Assembly (NCBI GenBank): GCA_000091205.1
Contig: AP006500.2
Direction: 5' to 3' (one strand)
DNA length: 64,000 nt
From: Cyanidioschyzon merolae
Taxonomy: Eukaryota
Under the pieces are notes generated by a model. It was not told the origin of the DNA. It made no database searches and saw only the letters and a program-made list of their open reading frames with translations. Position numbers and translations under genes: made by a program. Numbering within the stretch: position 1 is the first letter of the stretch; every line of letters starts with the position of its first letter. This document shows positions 17,401-61,678 of the stretch, one piece after another.

Positions 17401-17889
17401 TTTTTCGGAACGATACTAGGACGCTGCTGCGGGTGCTTGCTCGTCCTGCAGAGGCCTTTTGTGCGGTCCCGCAGAGCAGTCTGTGTCACGTTCGCTTCCA
17501 CAACCTGCAGCCACCCGACGGGAGTGAAGGCCGAGCAGGCGAGCGCGCAAAGCACAGGTGCGTCCAAGAGCACTATTTGGTACGTTCCTCGAAACCGGAT
17601 GTAAACGAACAATCCAGCTTGTGACGCTAACACCTCGAGAGGCCAACGTGTTTCAAACGTGTAGCGAGGCACGTCTCTGCATGCACCCGGAGTTGCGTTC
17701 GGACTGGAGAGCGCCGTATCCGACGCTGCGCGAAAACACTTGTCCACGTGGCTGCTGCGACATGAAGGTGCTTGGACGCAGTGCGTTTGACAACCACAAC
17801 CGCCTAATGGAAGCATCACATAAGATTCTGCATATAGAACAATGATCAGAAACGAATGAATAACTAGCAACGACATAGTGATTTTTTGT

Positions 17890-18470
17890 CGCTCTACGGT
17901 AAACGTTTAAAGGGAGAAGAGCTTTCGGTATTTTCGACAGTTTACCCTATGAGCGGAAGGTCCCGCGAGCCGGACGAGTCTGTCGGGCTCCTGCTTCATG
18001 CTCCATACAGTGCCGAGTGCTGTCGTGAGACCTGAGCAGTTCGTCCGAAACGCAGTTTATTCTGGGACTGGGAGCGGGTAGATTTCATTCGGGCGTCGCC
18101 CGTATTGCAGTAATCGTCTAGTATATCGCTTCGCGCTGCCGCAGGCAGCAGGTCTATCAGCACAACTTGCAGGCTCCCAGAATGATACCGAATGCCGATT
18201 CGGTCTTGAATGAACCATCCCTCGAGCTGACACCCTCTTTGGTATGGCAGAGCCGTTCTGCCTCCGTGCTGCATCTGCTCCATCTGAAAAACAAACGCGC
18301 AAAGGTGGGTGCTCAAAGCAGACTAGGTGCCCAGTGGAACATACGAAACGGCCAGTATATGCCAGAGGAAGTACAATTGATGGAACTTGGAGATAGGGTG
18401 CAGCAGCAAGATGGACGCTTTCTCACTTAACAATATCCATCCCGTATTCTGGGATCCCTAGTCCAGCGAA
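17890..18470. repeat. dispersed repeat family, copy 1 (second copy at ~59803-60390, same orientation, roughly 75% identical)
   Basis: Shared blocks: ctacggtaaacgtt. 30-nt identical core ggaaggtcccgcgagccggacgagtctgtc (17955-17984 vs 59867-59896). ttcatgct. cgtccgaaacgcagttt. gggcgtcgccc hairpin. atatcgcttcgcgctgccgcaggcagcag. caggctcccagaatga. tggcagagccgttctg...gcatctgctcca. Confidence 0.6.
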
Positions 18471-39698: not shown

Positions 39699-40570
39699 AA
39701 CAGTGAAACAGAAAATGGTTCACAACCATGGACGGTAGATATATCCACTCACCCGCTGACGTCTCCCGGCCTTTTTGACCGACCCTCTGCTATCTGCTCC
39801 AGCTTTTCCTTCTACTCTTCGAGCCTGAGAGGCTGCCCCACAAACTTGTATCTCGTCAGCCCCGGGGGTCTCGTCTTCAGCACCACAAATCTCCTGGTAT
39901 TGATGACAGCGCTGAGGTCCTGGTACACGAATCCGATGCGTTTGCTGCCGCTGATAGAACTCATCAGTGCAAGAATTCCTCGAACTCGCGCACTCTGTTC
40001 CACTATAGTCTCATTGTCGTCCAGCCCAACAAACACCTTTTCCCGCCTATTTCCCTACTTATTCTTTTTCGTCCTCATTTGCCCCGTTTCGCTGGATGAT
40101 TGACGAGGAGCGGATCTTATTCGTTGTTTTCCAGCAGCCAGCGACACAGTGCATCCACGATCCCCGATTTAGGCATCAATACCTATCCCCTTGACTTTTT
40201 ATTTCTTCAACTGAACACACTGGGAACGCGTCTTCTATAACCCGAGAAAAGTCATTTTTAATGAAACGCATCTGGTAACGGAACACTATTGAAGTGAAAG
40301 TCTATACACCGATCGTCTGTCTGGACGGTGGCTCGCCACACCGATCGCACCAACACACGAGTGGCGCTTGCCGCTGCAAAACATACCATTGTTGCTCATT
40401 AGGAGTAGGTTCTAGAGCTTGCACTCCTTGTACGTCGATCATCATCTATACAGGCACAGGTAATACGTTTCCGAGCCAGTGACTTTCCCAGACAGAATCT
40501 GCTTTTGAACTAGCTTGCTGAACGTGTTTGATCGTGCGCTTTGGGAGCAGGTACTTGAGCTTCGACGCTC

Positions 40571-55083: not shown

Positions 55084-57033
55084 TTACAGTGCGCTTGTGT
55101 TCAGCGAGGAAATATAATCCTTCAAGCCGACTAGACCACTAGTATGACGCAGTTTTCGAAACGCAGCATTCTCTATCGCTCTAACCTCTTCACGCGGTAA
55201 ACGCACCAGCGCACCTACTTCATCAATTGTCTTGGCAATGCCCGAGTCCAGACCGTATCGCAAACGCACAACCCTCATTTCCACATGATTCAGCAACTGG
55301 AGGGAACGCTCGAGATCTTCACGAAGCATGCTCAGCTCAATTTGCTCCTCAGGCGAAGCGCTTTCATGCACGATCGAATCCGCAAGGGTTGTGCGGTCTC
55401 GTTCCGAGCCAGACTGGTTGTTCCCAAACCGAACCGAGGATTCCAGCGAGATGGTCTGCACTGCAAGCGAACGCAATTCACGCAAGCGCTTCCGGGATAT
55501 TCCCAACCGTTCACAGATATCCGCTTCGGTTGGTTCGCAGCCCCGTTCGATGCTCAGGTCGCGCGCGGCTTTGCGAACGGCGAGTATGCGATCATGCATA
55601 TGAACAGGAAGCCGAACGATACGACCTTGGTCCGCAAGCGCGCGCATGACGCTCTGTTTCACCCACCAGGTCGCGTAGGTGCTGAAACGACATCCGCGTC
55701 GGTCGTCGAACTTTTCTGCCGCCCGAATGAGGCCGAGCGAGCCCTCCTGGATGAGATCCTCCAGGGGCAGACCTTTGCGCATGTATCGCTTGGCAATGGA
55801 CACCACGAGTCGGAGGTTCGCTGCTACCATACGGTCCTTCGCTCGCCGTGCTTCGGCAAGGTTCCTGCGAAAGCGCTCTGGGTCGACACCGAGATGCTCT
55901 GCGAGTTCATCATCCGTTGGTGCTCGATCCAGTGCCCCGTGGAGCTCGATTCGCTTGCGCTCCCAATGCAAAAGCCGTGAAATCTGACGTGAAAGCGATA
56001 CTTCCTCCTCAGGGGTGAGCATATCCACACGTCCGATCATGCGCAAGTACCAGCGCAGGGTACTGCTCTCGCTGGAACGCGCACGAGGGGTTTCGGGATA
56101 TGTCTCCCACGCCAGCGGCTCATTGTCGGAAGGATCATCTTCACTGTAGTCGAGTTCCCGAATGCTCGGTCCGTCATCATCCGCTGCACGTTCGCTGTCC
56201 TGGATGCGTTCCCACCGGGCATTCACTACGGCGGATGGATTCGTAGAGAGGGATCGACGTGATCCTTGTGGCAACTTGTGAACTGCATCATTCAGAGATG
56301 TTGGGCTGAGTCGTTGGTCGGCATTGGACAACTGACGTTGCCGAGCTGGCCGGACACTCTTACTTGAACGTGTTTTCGCGCTCGGAGAGGTAGTTTCACG
56401 CATATGAGCTTGCCCAGGCCCGCCAGGGTGCTTCGCCTCCCAGTTTGGTACCGGCAGGCGATTATCCACGGAAACGAAAGTTTCCTCCAAAGGGGTTTGG
56501 AGCGGCGAATCAGGTACTGCCGACGTAGACTGGCCAACACGAAGCGTTGCAGCTCTCGCCTGACGACGACGCGAGCTGCCGGTTCGCTCGGGCGTACGCT
56601 GCGCACCGGAACTCGCATCCGGAGTCGTACCGCTGTCCACTGACTTGGGCACATGTTCACGCTGCTCGTCGCGTGCCACGGGACCTAGCGGTGCTGGGGC
56701 ACAAACACTGTTCGCCTCCGGCTCAAGTTTTCTAGCTCCATCAACAAAACCATGCTTTTCGAGAGCGTACTCAGCGCCTAGGTCTCGTGATCTGTTCGTG
56801 TTCGCGCAGCAGCGACAGCTGCGCAAGAGGCGCGGCTCGGCCACAACTAGCCTCACACCGCGACCAGGGCAAGTCTTGCCGTGCTGCAACCGCTGCCCGG
56901 CACGCGGCAGATCCAGTTGCTTTAGCGGGCGCACCCTCCATAGACCGAGCGTCGCCGTGACGAAACCTACACCGTCGCTGCTTAGCCTGCAGCAGCGCGC
57001 CTCAGCGCTCGCGGTACGTCCCTGCGTGAACAT
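55084..57033 (-). CDS. nuclear-encoded plastid RNA polymerase sigma factor (sigma-70 family) with long N-terminal extension
   Basis: All sigma-70 regions present: region 1.2/2 (RWYLRMIGRVDMLTPEEEVSL...AANLRLVVSIAKRYMRKGLPLEDLIQEGSLGLIRAAEKFDDRRGCRFSTYATWWVKQSV), region 3 (RIVRLPVHMHDRILAVRKA), region 4 (EMRVVRLRYGLDSGIAKTIDEVGALVRLPREEVRAIENAAFRKLR). Track start 57045 is GTG; first ATG is 57033. Confidence 0.9.
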   Translation of the reverse strand: MFTQGRTASAEARCCRLSSDGVGFVTATLGLWRVRPLKQLDLPRAGQRLQHGKTCPGRGVRLVVAEPRLLRSCRCCANTNRSRDLGAEYALEKHGFVDGARKLEPEANSVCAPAPLGPVARDEQREHVPKSVDSGTTPDASSGAQRTPERTGSSRRRQARAATLRVGQSTSAVPDSPLQTPLEETFVSVDNRLPVPNWEAKHPGGPGQAHMRETTSPSAKTRSSKSVRPARQRQLSNADQRLSPTSLNDAVHKLPQGSRRSLSTNPSAVVNARWERIQDSERAADDDGPSIRELDYSEDDPSDNEPLAWETYPETPRARSSESSTLRWYLRMIGRVDMLTPEEEVSLSRQISRLLHWERKRIELHGALDRAPTDDELAEHLGVDPERFRRNLAEARRAKDRMVAANLRLVVSIAKRYMRKGLPLEDLIQEGSLGLIRAAEKFDDRRGCRFSTYATWWVKQSVMRALADQGRIVRLPVHMHDRILAVRKAARDLSIERGCEPTEADICERLGISRKRLRELRSLAVQTISLESSVRFGNNQSGSERDRTTLADSIVHESASPEEQIELSMLREDLERSLQLLNHVEMRVVRLRYGLDSGIAKTIDEVGALVRLPREEVRAIENAAFRKLRHTSGLVGLKDYISSLNTSAL

Positions 57034-57359
57034 TGCCCAAGCCACGTCTGTCTCGATGCCCTCCCAAATTCAAGAAATAGGAGTCCAGCTCGAAGAACCA
57101 AGCTTCACCAAGTAGCCTTTTTGAGCAGAGCACGTCCCTGGTTCGACAAATGGGAGTACCACGAACGACAACCGCCTTTCAAAAGAAAAACGCTGTCACT
57201 GGCCGTATACAGTCGTGGCGGCGAATGCGCGTAGACAAAACGCCTCCAACTGACGCGCAGACGCTTCCGAGGCTTTCTCGACCGGCCACCCACGACTGCT
57301 TCCAATTGTTTCTAATATAGTTCCACTTTGGGATGTTGTCCAACAATGTTTTCTCATGT

Positions 57360-58578
57360 CTACGCTGGAGGTCTCTTCTCCAGCACCGCACATCTCCGGA
57401 TATTGATTGCGGCGTTAAAGTCTCGGTTCACAAACTCCATCCGTTTCTTGCCATCGTTGGTTGTACTTACGAATGCGAGTAGCCCTCGAACTTTCGCCCT
57501 CCTTTCCATTTGCTCCTCCGTCAGCGGTCCGAACTTTTTTATATCCTCAGGGCTCCGCTGGCACTTTTCCATATCGACCCGCTGGAGTGTACACCTCAGC
57601 CCGTGGTGTGTATACGATGTTCGGAACTCATCTACAGGTATCGTAACGAAACGCCTTGCGCACTGCTTGTACGTTCTTGTCGTTGGAGCTGGCGTACACC
57701 CTTTTCGGGTCTTCCAGCGCCCTGCTCCGCGTGCTACTACGAGCCTCTGACTTTTATCCTCTTTGAAGGCGCTCATTGGAAAAATTCGCAGATGCACGCT
57801 GCCTCCCACCGTATAGATGAATACGTAGACGAGCCCAAAAGGGCTTTGTGTACTCTTTCCACAGCGCCTCACAATGAGCAACACGAATTTCCATGAATTT
57901 CAGAAACGCTTTAAAGTCCGCTCCGCGGCAAGTCACCTCGCTCAAAGCTTCCCGGTGATCCTTCATTCCATCGTTCTACGTCTCAATTTTCTTCCTTGCA
58001 TTCATGATTCCCGATTCTCGATAGTATCTCGCTCTCGAGAACCTCAACAGACGCACGTCTTTCTGACGCAAGTTGCCGTCGGTATCATCTCCCCCACGCT
58101 TGGGTACAGCGACGGTTATAATATTCGTGTTCCCGGGGTCCGCGCCACCGACAAAGCAATTCTCATGCACTTTCCGCGTCGCAGGACCCGCCTCCTTCTT
58201 TTTTTCATGCTTCGTCGCGCCAACCGTAAAGTCGTTAGCTTGCACTTTCTGTGTCGCAGGATCCTTCTCCTTCTCATCTTCATGCTTCGTCAGCGGCGGA
58301 ACTGGACGATCCACCTTCAACCGCCGATAGTGTACACACAGGGCTACTCCATCGGTTTCGATCAACCCAGTGAACAACTTTTGCTTGCTTATTTTGAGAC
58401 GTTTGAAAACGAAGATATTCTTCCAGTGCATCTCCCTGTTCTCACCTGTGAACTCTGCCCTCCTTACATCGAACTCGGGACTGATCTCCTTCATGATGCC
58501 ATGAAGGACTCTGGAGCCGGTAGTAACAAAATGTGACTTGATGGTGCACATTGGAACGACGTTGGAGCGCTTCCCCAT
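57360..58578 (-). pseudogene. TnpB/Fanzor-like nuclease core (RuvC-I through RuvC-III), interrupted by one frameshift/stop between 57884 and 57976
   Basis: Segment 58578-57976 starts with ATG (MGKRSNVVP...). If joined across the frameshift the two parts give ~400 aa, the TnpB/Fanzor2 size range. The catalytic triad residues D (GADPG), E (DEFRTS) and D (NRDFNAAINI) all appear intact. Confidence 0.55.
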
Positions 58579-59425
58579 TAGGGCCGCCTTCCGTCTCTCC
58601 CACTCTTCATTTTTTCGTCACTCAGCTTTATTTCCGCCTTGCGTTCTGGCGCTCGGTCCAGAAACGCGAAATAGCACAGAATGAGGCGATAGTATCTTTC
58701 ATTATCTTTTTTCAGCTCTGATATCTTTTCTCTTGAATTCGCCAGCCCCGAGACTGCACGGTGCTCTTGTATAACAGCACGGATTACAGAAGCTTCATTC
58801 GTGCTCCTGCGTGATTTCTTCTCGTCGACGAATTCGATCTAATCTTCATGCTTGCGATCGTTCGTGATACCGTTGATAATCGCCCATATTCCTTTGCGAG
58901 ACAGGCCCGGGTAAATTGCAAACACGGCGCATATCATAAAACGTTCGAGGTTCATCCTCAAATGCTTCTTCAGGTTCGTGAGGTACTTCATCGCCCCGTA
59001 TGTGTAAGTATCCCGGTCACCCCTGTATCGAGTACCCTCGAAGCGGAATTCCGCGAAGTTTTCGTGGAGGACGTGCACTAGCTCATTTTCCGTCCGCGTT
59101 TCCCCTGTGCCAAGCATCAGGTGACGAATAAAGGTCTTGTCGAAAACTCGTCCGGAATCTCGACTGTTTCCGTATGCGCCACGTCTTCGTACATCTCCCT
59201 CGCCATATGCATGACTCCTAAAGAAGCCTTTATAACACTCATGGGGTACGAATCGACACGGTTCCTGATAGCGTCTCGCAACTTTTCCTTGTAGGGATCC
59301 TTGATATGTTTACGAAGACAGGCGTTTACCACCATCTCGTCGTACTTTCGTCTTTCGTACAGCATGTAAAGTCGGGTCTCCTGCCTTAGCTTCTTCGTCT
59401 TCTCCTGCTCCACTTGGCTCGGCAC
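57360..59425 (-). mobile_element. TnpB/Fanzor-like (OMEGA-family RuvC nuclease) element, fragmented by frameshifts
   Basis: Four consecutive minus-strand ORFs in frames 1, 2, 0, 2: 59425-59117, 59117-58839 (TGATG stop/start overlap), 58578-57976, 57884-57360. Third segment: [16 protein letters not shown]...[17 protein letters not shown] (RuvC-I), then [17 protein letters not shown]. Fourth segment: VTIPVDEFRTSYTHHG (RuvC-II, DExxTS) with partial Zn-finger cysteines, then EFVNRDFNAAINIRRC (RuvC-III, RDxNAAxNI). The whole block is AT-richer than its surroundings. Confidence 0.65.
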
Positions 59426-59802
59426 TCTGTTTCGCTTTCTCTGGCAGCCGGCGAGGTTGTACCACCGGTATCATCCACTTGCTTCTCCATACGTTTCCAT
59501 TTTTGAAAAAGAACGCGCTTTGATCGCTTCTGCTATGTAGCGCGAAAAATCAATCGAATACACCCCCCCTGAGGATTGAAACACAATGGAACTGAGAAGC
59601 TATACTTGCGGCCACTTTCACACAAATACACCCTGTACGATAGAACAACACGCGAAAGATCAGAATCGCGTTTCCCTTCAACGGCGACATGCGCGTCATG
59701 TCTCGTGACTGCCGGATCTCCCGGGTGCGCGTATCGAGCGCACTATGTACCAACAAGAACATAGACTAACGATAAACTACCAACGATACAAAAATTCCTT
59801 TC

Positions 59803-60390
59803 CCCTCTACGATAAACGTTGAACGTGGGAAACCGCTTCCGTACTGTCGAAAGTTAGCCTTCTTGACGGAAGGTCCCGCGAGCCGGACGAGTCTGTCACG
59901 TTTGTGTTTCATGCTGCACTCAGTGGCAGGTACTTCAGTGGCAGGTACTTCAGTGAAATCTGAGCCACTCGTCCGCAACGCAGTTTCCTCTGAGACTAGG
60001 GGCAGTTAAGCTGTGTCTGGGCGTCGCCCATGTTGCAACTATCTCCGAGCATATCGCTTGGCGCTGCTGCAGGCAGTAGGGCTGTCTGCCCAGTTTTCAG
60101 GCTCCCAGAATGACAATTAGCTCTGATTCCGTGTCAGGTGTAGTATTCGTCGGGCCGACACCATCGGGAGTATGGCAAAGCCGTTCTGGCTACGTGCAGC
60201 ATCTGCTCCAGCGGTGTAGGCGCTGCAGCGGGTGCTCAGCGCAGGCACTCGGCACACGGTAGAACGTTCGAAACGATCAGTATACCCGAGATGAAGAGTA
60301 AGTAATGGAACTTGAAGGTAGGATGCATGATGATGGGCGCTTCCCCGAAAGCCATTATCTATGCCGCAATCTGAGATCCATGGTTCATGT
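59803..60390. repeat. dispersed repeat family, copy 2 (see copy 1 at 17890-18470), abutting the 5' side of the TnpB/Fanzor-like element
   Basis: See copy 1. Includes the local duplication cagtggcaggtacttcagtggcaggtacttcagtg. Confidence 0.6.
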
Positions 60391-61678
60391 AAACGTTTTG
60401 ATATCGAAAAAAAAATCGCTACCGCCATTGTCATCCCCGCGGATCCATCAACTGGTGATCGCCTCGTCCATGATCTGTTTCATTGCACAGGTCGCTCGAT
60501 GGACAAGCGTTCCTCAACTGCGCGCTTGAGATGAGCGATCGGGAAAGCATCCATCGATCTAGGTCCTGCCTCCAAGTTCCGTGGTGCATACGTCTCCTCC
60601 GAGTGTACTCGTTATCTCTTATGTTCTGTGGTATGCGTCGAGGCTGTTGTGAGCGTTTGCGATAGCGCGTGTAGCGTCGATGCGCACGCAGCCCCGAGGT
60701 CATGTCCACGAAGCGGTTTGTGTGCACGGCCGCCGATGTATTGCTAGTGAAACATGTCGATACAGTGGATCGGGAGTGCTCTGGATGCACTGGTGCTGTC
60801 GGCAGCTGGGGAATGGACACTTGTTTCTTCTCGGATATGGCAGCGTCGTGATGCCTGCAGACCAATTTCCTAGACGAGAATCGGGATTCATAGCATAGAC
60901 GCTTGAACGCTGCGCCCTATCAAACCGCTGGTAGCGGAGCCTGTGGCAGCGCGCAACCCTATACGCCCGCTCGTGCCGCGGAGCATGGCGCAGGCTTCAT
61001 GGTATTCGCGCATGCGTTCAAAAAAGGGTCCCGGAGTGCATCGCTGCCCGTTCCACTGAGGTCGCAGGCTCACCGATACCGCCTCATCGATCCTGGGGCC
61101 GTTCATATCAGTGGATGGAGGTGCTGCGTGATGAAACTACGCAGAGAGGTTTTACCTGGATTCAGACTGCAGCAGGAAGCACGCCTTCGTTCAGTCTCGA
61201 GAGTGCTTGCCTCAGCAGCAGCGCAGTGTCATTTGCCATGAAAACCTACGCAGGTGTCCCAGCGGTCCAGCGTCGCGAGAGGCTACGGATAGCAGCTCCC
61301 CCCGGATCGATGCAGATGCAATTGCGGCTAGGCGAAACCGATATCTGTGCCCGGCACGAATCGTGAATGTGGATACGTATACGGATGCATCCATAAGTGC
61401 GTCCATCGCTCGCCAAGGTCGATGCAGCGTCCGTTATTGCGCAAAAAACGACGATTCCGTGGACCTTCAGCGAAAAGGCGAGCTGCGCTCCACATTCCAT
61501 CTCCCCTGTGCTGCAGGCTCCTGTTCGGCGCAACGCATCTATAGACACGATGCAGCGCTCGTGGTAGCCTGTGGCGAAAATTCGATCGAGTTGTCTCTCA
61601 GAGACCACATGAATGGCCACTAGATGAACGCCAGGGGGTGCCTCGGGGCTCGCGCTCGCGACCCCGAATCCCTTTGGA

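Follow-up and report, generated by a model that had tools for sequence, protein, structure and literature searches.

What occupies the roughly 330 bp that separate a frameshifted, TnpB-like nuclease from the sigma-factor gene behind it in Cyanidioschyzon merolae? We examined this question in a 64,000-nucleotide stretch of contig AP006500.2 (hereafter the window, numbered from its first letter), in which positions 57050-57400 had been proposed, from the letters alone, to hold the guide RNA (omega-RNA) and the transposon right end of that nuclease on the minus strand. We find that a decayed copy of the Fanzor1 element CMe-1A has its 3' end at 57158-57362. The tail of this family overlaps a C-terminal coding extension and keeps a conserved, strand-specific pairing potential, and at the level of the family it is probably the scaffold of an omega-RNA, also known as right-end element RNA (reRNA). 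The tail of the window copy is a relic, because the local nuclease is dead.

The element and its right end

The whole element runs from 60419 to 57158 on the minus strand (3.26 kb), its Fanzor module taking up 59741 to about 57158. A search with the reconstructed protein returned 51 protein clusters, mostly 54-79% identical, and a scan of metagenome contigs returned more than 434 related encoding stretches; the copies compared throughout come from metagenomes of close relatives and not from the 10D genome itself. At the DNA level the window copy is 77-84% identical to its paralogs. CMe-1A is described as a family of about 150 copies with about 80% identity to their consensus and a length of about 3 kb, lacking terminal inverted repeats (TIRs), with target-site duplications (TSDs) undetermined, still encoding Fanzor1 in some copies and sharing its 5' 635 bp with TE-N2_CMe (Bao & Jurka 2013, PMC3627910). 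The window element is assigned to CMe-1A by its copy number, identity and length, its lack of TIRs and its 5' TE-N2 module. Our search of the window element for terminal inverted repeats gave none above 14-16 nt, and inspection of the flanks at the candidate left boundaries 60419 and 59741 gave no consistent TSD or target-adjacent motif (TAM); a possible GGTA duplication at the window copy does not recur at other copies.

The features on which the right end turns are as follows.

57339..59425, minus strand: pseudogene of the Fanzor1 (CMe-1) nuclease, broken by 3 frameshifts and 4 in-frame stops when set against the intact paralog P0001
57360..57362, minus strand: premature TAG that closes the last open frame segment in this copy
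about 57234..57359 (57362-57231 with both stop positions), minus strand: relic of a C-terminal coding extension, overlapping helices P1-P3 described below, its frame kept in 46 copies
57231..57233, minus strand: canonical stop position of the family, TAG in paralogs and TAC here, the border between coding extension and non-coding right end

That the nuclease is frameshifted, as proposed, is borne out by P0001 (752 aa), which is colinear over 59425-57339 in four segments in frames -1/-3/-2/-3. This colinearity identifies a pseudogene and not an intron-containing gene; introns in place of the frameshifts were ruled out, the P0001 alignment being free of gaps at the shifts. Homology of the CMe-1 family to the TnpB superfamily is indirect but strong at the sequence level: the family profile matches protein P0050 with 99.8% probability (E=1.4e-28, 484 columns), and P0050 and P0051 pass Pfam PF07282 (Cas12f1-like_TNB, the TnpB/Cas12f TNB domain), although direct Pfam searches with window fragments and intact paralogs, and a sequence search of the PDB with the family profile, gave no matches. 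RuvC catalytic motifs (D...E...D), including NRDFNAAINI, can be read in both the family consensus and the window relic, as assigned by motif position and not by structure. At the zinc ribbon (CxxC...CxxC) the family has THHELGC...KC where P0050 has CHDC...C, so the cysteines appear to be partly replaced, at the equivalent of window positions ~57640-57560 on the minus strand. The frame also carries a 75-nt tandem duplication (window 58141-58290; 76% identity between units) that encodes KHE(D/K)EKE..ATQKV..N.F and whose copy number varies among paralogs, which explains part of the spread in protein length (582-752 aa).

Homology does not stop with the local reading frame. In a BLAST comparison of 83 loci it continues past the local TAG by about 200 nt, the longest alignments ending at 57158-57173, and in an alignment of 46 independent tails (A3) the flanks are unrelated past a terminal hairpin; a search of the window with the tail profile recovered a single copy, 57302-57170. 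The position logic of the original prediction holds, in that the nuclease frame is followed by the right end of a Fanzor1 element present in many copies, and conservation among paralogs, on which the proposal had been staked beforehand, is kept up to about 57158 and lost beyond it. Only 57158-57400 of the flagged interval belongs to the element. Because homology stops near 57158, the remaining third, 57050-57157, is host DNA that no paralog conserves.

The supposed spacer does run from the nuclease TAG at 57362-57360 to the sigma-factor ATG at 57033 and does follow the local nuclease frame, but about 130 nt of it were once coding. Likewise, the absence of a coding open reading frame (ORF) is true of this copy, while 57362-57231 is the relic of an extension that the family translates. 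The extension reads ...GQPLKVELYEKKLEAVVGGRSKKTGRRLHVSWRRFV as the family sequence, and the frame in most copies runs on as ...RPPESTRENFVGQPLKVELYEKKLEAVVGGRSKKTGRRLHVSWRRFV; several predicted family proteins end at the canonical stop, in ...WRRFV. Divergence by codon position is 0.122/0.091/0.165 in the extension and 0.094/0.073/0.185 in the bulk of the ORF, where four-fold degenerate sites diverge by 0.211, and codon periodicity is absent past the canonical stop. The ORF of live members is longer than that of the window copy by about 130 nt, or about 40 codons, and with the canonical stop at 57233-57231 the non-coding right end is only about 73 nt long (57230-57158). The basic extension (GGRSKKTGRRLHVSWRRFV) might serve as a nuclear localisation signal or an RNA-binding tail.

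Stop codons in the family fall at three positions (A3 columns 33, 57 and 168): a TAG after RPPE in 8/46 copies, a TAA after NF.G in 3/46, and the canonical TAG after WRRFV.

Pairing potential of the tail

We folded each copy and mapped its pairs onto the alignment columns, which gave the following helices.

57365..57383 (arms 57383-78/57370-65), minus strand: H0, a small conserved hairpin CUGGAG-N7-CUCCAG in the end of the ORF, with 93% of cells paired
57290..57298, minus strand: P1 5' arm, sense CAGUCGUGG, within the coding-extension relic (family codons EAVVGG)
57210..57218, minus strand: P1 3' arm, sense CCACGACUG, in the non-coding tail
57219..57222 with 57285-57288, minus strand: P1b, an extension of P1 after a 1-nt bulge, with a U·G pair kept in 43/46 copies
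57268..57285 (arms 57285-80/57273-68), minus strand: P2 hairpin, CCGGUC...GACUGG in the family, with two mismatches in the window copy
57237..57267 (arms 57267-59/57245-37), minus strand: P3 hairpin of 9 bp with several G·U pairs, intact here, with 83% of cells paired
57158..57206, minus strand: terminal stem-loop of about 50 nt and about 20 bp, G·U-rich, with loop UUUU at 57184-57181 and its base at the element right end

The complementary 9-mers that first drew attention to this region are real and perfect (CAGTCGTGG at 57210-57218 and CCACGACTG at 57290-57298, about 5 nt from where they had been placed). They form the long-range closing helix P1 of the family, which is in the minimum free energy structure of 8/8 folded paralog tails. 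The repeat alone is not evidence, because a perfect inverted repeat of at least 9 nt occurs in 157/1000 dinucleotide-type shuffles of 57050-57400 (about 16%); it becomes meaningful only since the paralogs keep the stem. The proposed nesting inside ggccg...cggcc fails, for a pairing of ggccg (57201-05) with cggcc (57283-87) would cross that of the 9-mers and is unable to extend their stem.

Across the 46 copies, 83-85% of stem cells are paired, as against 36-60% in slid registers. In eight copies the P1-P3 domain folds with z-scores of -2.0 to -6.9, with P1 formed in all of them. Folding of the whole minus-strand tail predicted a multi-stem structure of the expected kind, with a stem-loop beside the variable flank; for the window copy z was -1.95 in the sense and -0.93 in the antisense orientation, and for a better-preserved copy (L021) it was -3.8. 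H0 may form the 5' part of the same scaffold. A further long-range helix, 57357-57365/57229-57237, is perfect in the window copy, but the family keeps only a near-invariant match of 6 bp there, one crossing P1, and for this reason we did not adopt it.

The terminal hairpin is shared by the paralogs and is markedly asymmetric between strands: its mean duplex energy is -19.8 kcal/mol in sense and -12.0 kcal/mol in antisense, with sense better in 28/29 copies, because the hairpin is G·U-rich. Conserved G·U pairs also occur in P1b and P3. The inner part of the hairpin exists in two versions, both stable: CGUUUUUC-UUUU-GAAAGGCG, and UUCGA-CUU-UCGAA with an outer GGCGUC/GGCGUU stem. When hairpin arms were swapped between copies, cognate arms paired better overall (p=0.004), as did the inner arms (8/20000).

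Comparison with the 3' ends of paralogs produced covariation at the inner hairpin arms and at the central pair of P1 (57294/57214), where 33 copies have A-U, 4 have G·U, 2 have U-A and the window has C-G (permutation p=0.002, phylogeny ignored); the window C-G is a compensatory change from A-U. The covariation score of 0.117, compared with 0.104 in column shuffles, was reached in 0/500 shuffles. Over the structure as a whole, however, covariation is weak.

Candidate roles of the tail

We consider the tail of the family to be, probably, an omega-RNA scaffold, and we infer transcription, nuclease binding and guide function of the tail RNA by analogy with TnpB and Fanzor systems. In live members the nuclease ORF would extend to the position equivalent to 57231 with ~73 nt of non-coding right end after it. 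In the sense transcript the final ~140-225 nt (from 57298 or 57383 to 57158) would then fold into four parts, namely the long-range stem P1, the inner hairpins P2 and P3 that it closes, and the G·U-rich terminal stem-loop at the boundary. As in TnpB/Fanzor systems, such a scaffold would come out of the nuclease transcript's 3' portion and continue ~15-20 nt into the flank, that stretch serving as the guide; the RNA would load into the Fanzor nuclease, which would cut matching DNA. The tail of the window copy could act only with an intact paralog in trans. If a read-through omega-RNA were made here, published TnpB/Fanzor biology would put its guide in the ~20 nt adjoining the element (~57136-57157).

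Several results weigh against a scaffold. In the terminal hairpin, no co-evolution links the outer arms (p=0.33), only 10-13 double-change cells underlie the covariation signal, the paired fraction barely exceeds that of column shuffles (85.2% against 84.5%), and once P2 and a further helix are added 14/500 shuffles reach the covariation score. Since the P1 5' arm, P2 and P3 are coding in the family, their sequence conservation possibly reflects constraint on the protein, and divergence in the non-coding part past the stop, ~0.13-0.17 per codon phase, is only modestly lower than the 0.21 of four-fold sites. Among ~99%-identical strains the window tail is no better conserved than its surroundings, as is to be expected of a dead copy. 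An Rfam scan of 54-62 kb at E<=1 returned only a chance CRISPR-DR match, and AlphaFold, run from 30 close paralogs, gave an unusable model of the nuclease (predicted local distance difference test score 32.5). RNAalifold found essentially no consensus over 48 tails, because many copies are decayed.

Among the alternatives, we weighed most heavily the possibility that the terminal hairpin serves as a transposon end signal in DNA, perhaps in company with the small 5' hairpins of the Fanzor module, and not as part of a guide RNA. An unknown transposase would recognize such signals in single-stranded form, in the style of IS200/IS605, IS91 or Helitron2. We regard this as unlikely. In its favour, the element lacks TIRs or detectable TSDs (PMC3627910 and our own inspection), the Fanzor module has hairpins close to either end with the base of the terminal one coinciding with the element boundary, both inner versions of the hairpin keep a stable stem, and Fanzor1 genes are known within hairpin-ended Helitron2 elements. 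What this account must explain away is the absence of any transposase gene from an element whose sole long frame is the Fanzor gene, the absence of the Helitron 5'-TC and 3'-CTRR signature at its termini and the heavy reliance of the hairpin on G·U, a feature that points to RNA, G·T pairing being weak in DNA; it also leaves unexplained a conserved P1 stem 60-140 nt inside the end. A role as a DNA end signal may coexist with a role in RNA, as in IS200/IS605.

More doubtful is the view that the tail is only the 3' end of a dead gene, in which 57231-57362 was formerly coding, the remainder is a 3' untranslated region that young copies share through common descent, and the complementarity of the stems is accidental. 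Codon periodicity and a conserved frame that reach the canonical stop agree with it, as do the 9-nt inverted repeat found in 16% of shuffles, the weak covariation and the lack of extra conservation of the window tail among strains. Yet shared descent does not readily account for pairings that persist, far above slid registers, over 46 copies of ~80% identity, nor for z-scores that are consistently negative, the strand asymmetry in 28 of the 29 hairpins, two inner-arm versions that both keep the hairpin and separate in the swap test, compensatory changes at the central P1 pair, and a homology stop that coincides with the hairpin base. Finally, a promoter or 5' leader regulatory structure of the sigma-factor gene, which would fit a position 125-330 nt upstream of its ATG on the same strand, is barely credible, as the structured part is a repeat found at hundreds of unrelated loci and the unique part, 57034-57157, has no notable structure or repeat.

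The omega-RNA scaffold can be carried further into a joint reading that we rate as quite improbable. CMe-1 elements, lacking a transposase and ending in hairpins, would be the eukaryotic equivalent of TnpB-only IS200/IS605 elements, with a guide RNA that is cut out of the mRNA 3' end, overlaps the coding extension and closes with a long G·U-rich stem-loop. RNA-guided homing, and not a conventional transposase, would account for their spread to hundreds of copies in this compact genome; dead copies, the window copy among them, may still supply guides in trans, in the present case one that would be aimed at the sigma-factor leader.

Genomic setting and relation to known systems

The C. merolae genome is very compact, nearly intron-free and repeat-poor. 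At this locus in strain 10D the Fanzor pseudogene sits between the gene for a chloroplast sigma factor and that for FolD, and GC content falls from ~0.57 to ~0.50 across 57-60 kb, between the two genes. The neighbours and the remaining modules of the element are as follows.

55084..57033, minus strand: chloroplast RNA polymerase sigma factor gene, whose protein from the ATG at 57033 is an exact match to BAM82413
57034..57157, minus strand: host flank outside the element, serving the sigma-factor gene as leader or promoter region, without similarity to paralogs
59426..59741, minus strand: 5' part of the Fanzor module, where most paralogs begin to match at ~59741, with small Watson-Crick hairpins at its start
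59742..60419, minus strand: TE-N2_CMe-like 5' module of composite CMe-1A, ~680 bp, recurring with and without the Fanzor module

The FolD protein is an exact match to BAM82414 of strain 10D. The same FolD-pseudogene-sigma arrangement with the same insertion occurs in contigs L084-L086 (JGI samples; ~99.2-99.6% identity), so the insertion is older than the divergence of these strains. No empty site was found, the orthologous loci in ~99%-identical strains all being occupied by the same pseudogene.

At the 5' end of the Fanzor module (window 59741-59670, minus strand), GTGCGC-N7-GCGCAC here corresponds to GCGCUC-N3-GAGCGC in paralogs, and in a further hairpin of the module CCUGG-GAGAU-CAGG alternates with CCUCC-AUAUCUG-GGAGG; the 5' hairpins show no strand asymmetry. 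The TE-N2-like module contains an exact 15-nt tandem repeat (TCAGTGGCAGGTACT twice, 59920-59949), and a diverged solo copy resembling TE-N2_CMe lies 40 kb away at 17838-18371 (68.6% identity over 551 nt). At other loci at least three other recurrent modules precede the Fanzor module, one of them an inverted TE-N2. Incomplete solo right ends that span P3 to the terminal hairpin stand 700-1100 nt upstream of other Fanzor modules (among the loci listed, L020 370-466, L008 923-1021 and L070 1875-1958); in L046 (~2515-2554) a TE-N2 module begins 39 nt past a Fanzor right end, and L002 (986-5887) holds two Fanzor copies head to head. These arrangements may hint at insertion beside existing right ends. 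The window also contains a second, far more decayed Fanzor 3' relic (~39727-40012, minus strand), matched by tblastn to P0001 residues 693-752 (E=1e-11); it aligns to the tail only up to the 5' arm of P3, and its decay and truncation leave it uninformative about the structure.

Among prokaryotic relatives, the TnpB omega-RNA of IS200/IS605 and IS607 elements (ISDra2, ISXfa1) lies across the tnpB 3' end and the element's right end, and its guide is the flank past the boundary. IS200/IS605 elements are marked by subterminal hairpins at both ends, insertion by a fixed 4-5-nt motif and a Y1 TnpA transposase. Like IS200/IS605 and IS607, CMe-1A has no TIRs or detectable TSDs, and TnpB-only, non-autonomous copies are common in those families; hairpins lie near both ends of its Fanzor module. 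Unlike IS200/IS605, it is eukaryotic and nuclear, has no TnpA in the element and showed neither a fixed flanking motif nor a TAM-like motif beside its left ends. Helitrons begin with 5'-TC and end with 3'-CTRR, carry a hairpin 10-12 nt before the 3' end and encode Rep/Hel in autonomous copies. CMe-1A resembles Helitron2 and other HUH elements in its subterminal hairpins and its lack of TIRs, and Fanzor1 is found as Helitron2 cargo; it differs in having no TC/CTRR, no Rep/Hel or Y1 gene and a hairpin that relies on G·U. Right at the hairpin base its 3' ends terminate in ...GGTAC, ...GGTGA or ...GGGTG, with CTRR absent.

The present finding mostly confirms expectation, because the family and the rule of a right-end guide were already known. 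The window copy matches the published CMe-1A in organism, multiple copies, length of ~3 kb, lack of TIRs and a 5' TE-N2_CMe module of ~635-680 bp, and differs in being a pseudogene; a right-end structure, a guide RNA, exact termini and a C-terminal ORF extension are absent from the available part of the description (PMC3627910). New here are the exact right-end coordinates of CMe-1A, the recognition of the family ORF extension and a testable scaffold model, P1-P3 plus terminal stem-loop, for a TIR-less Fanzor1 lineage. If the model is true, C. merolae, which is genetically tractable and harbours hundreds of copies, would be a convenient host in which to study the in vivo role of Fanzor and its guide RNA in a eukaryotic transposon.

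The closest comparison is with the guide RNAs of Fanzor1 itself, which combine a 75-120-nt right-end scaffold with a 14-20-nt guide in a multi-stem fold with a stem-loop beside the guide (PMC10432273; 10.1101/2023.08.09.552727). The reRNAs of insect-virus Fanzor1 and IS607 TnpB have a ~120-150-nt scaffold of three stems, with a guide-adjacent stem-loop, and read ~17-20 nt into the flank (10.1101/2023.08.09.552727). The CMe-1A tail, known here from its sequence, is like the omega-RNAs of SpuFz1 (Saito et al. 2023) and SfAV (Yoon et al. 2023) in position, strand, size and architecture. In the SpuFz1 and SfAV elements, TIRs form part of the scaffold, whereas the CMe-1A element has none; its putative scaffold, unlike theirs, shares ~65-130 nt with coding sequence and closes with a G·U-rich hairpin of unusual length (~50 nt).

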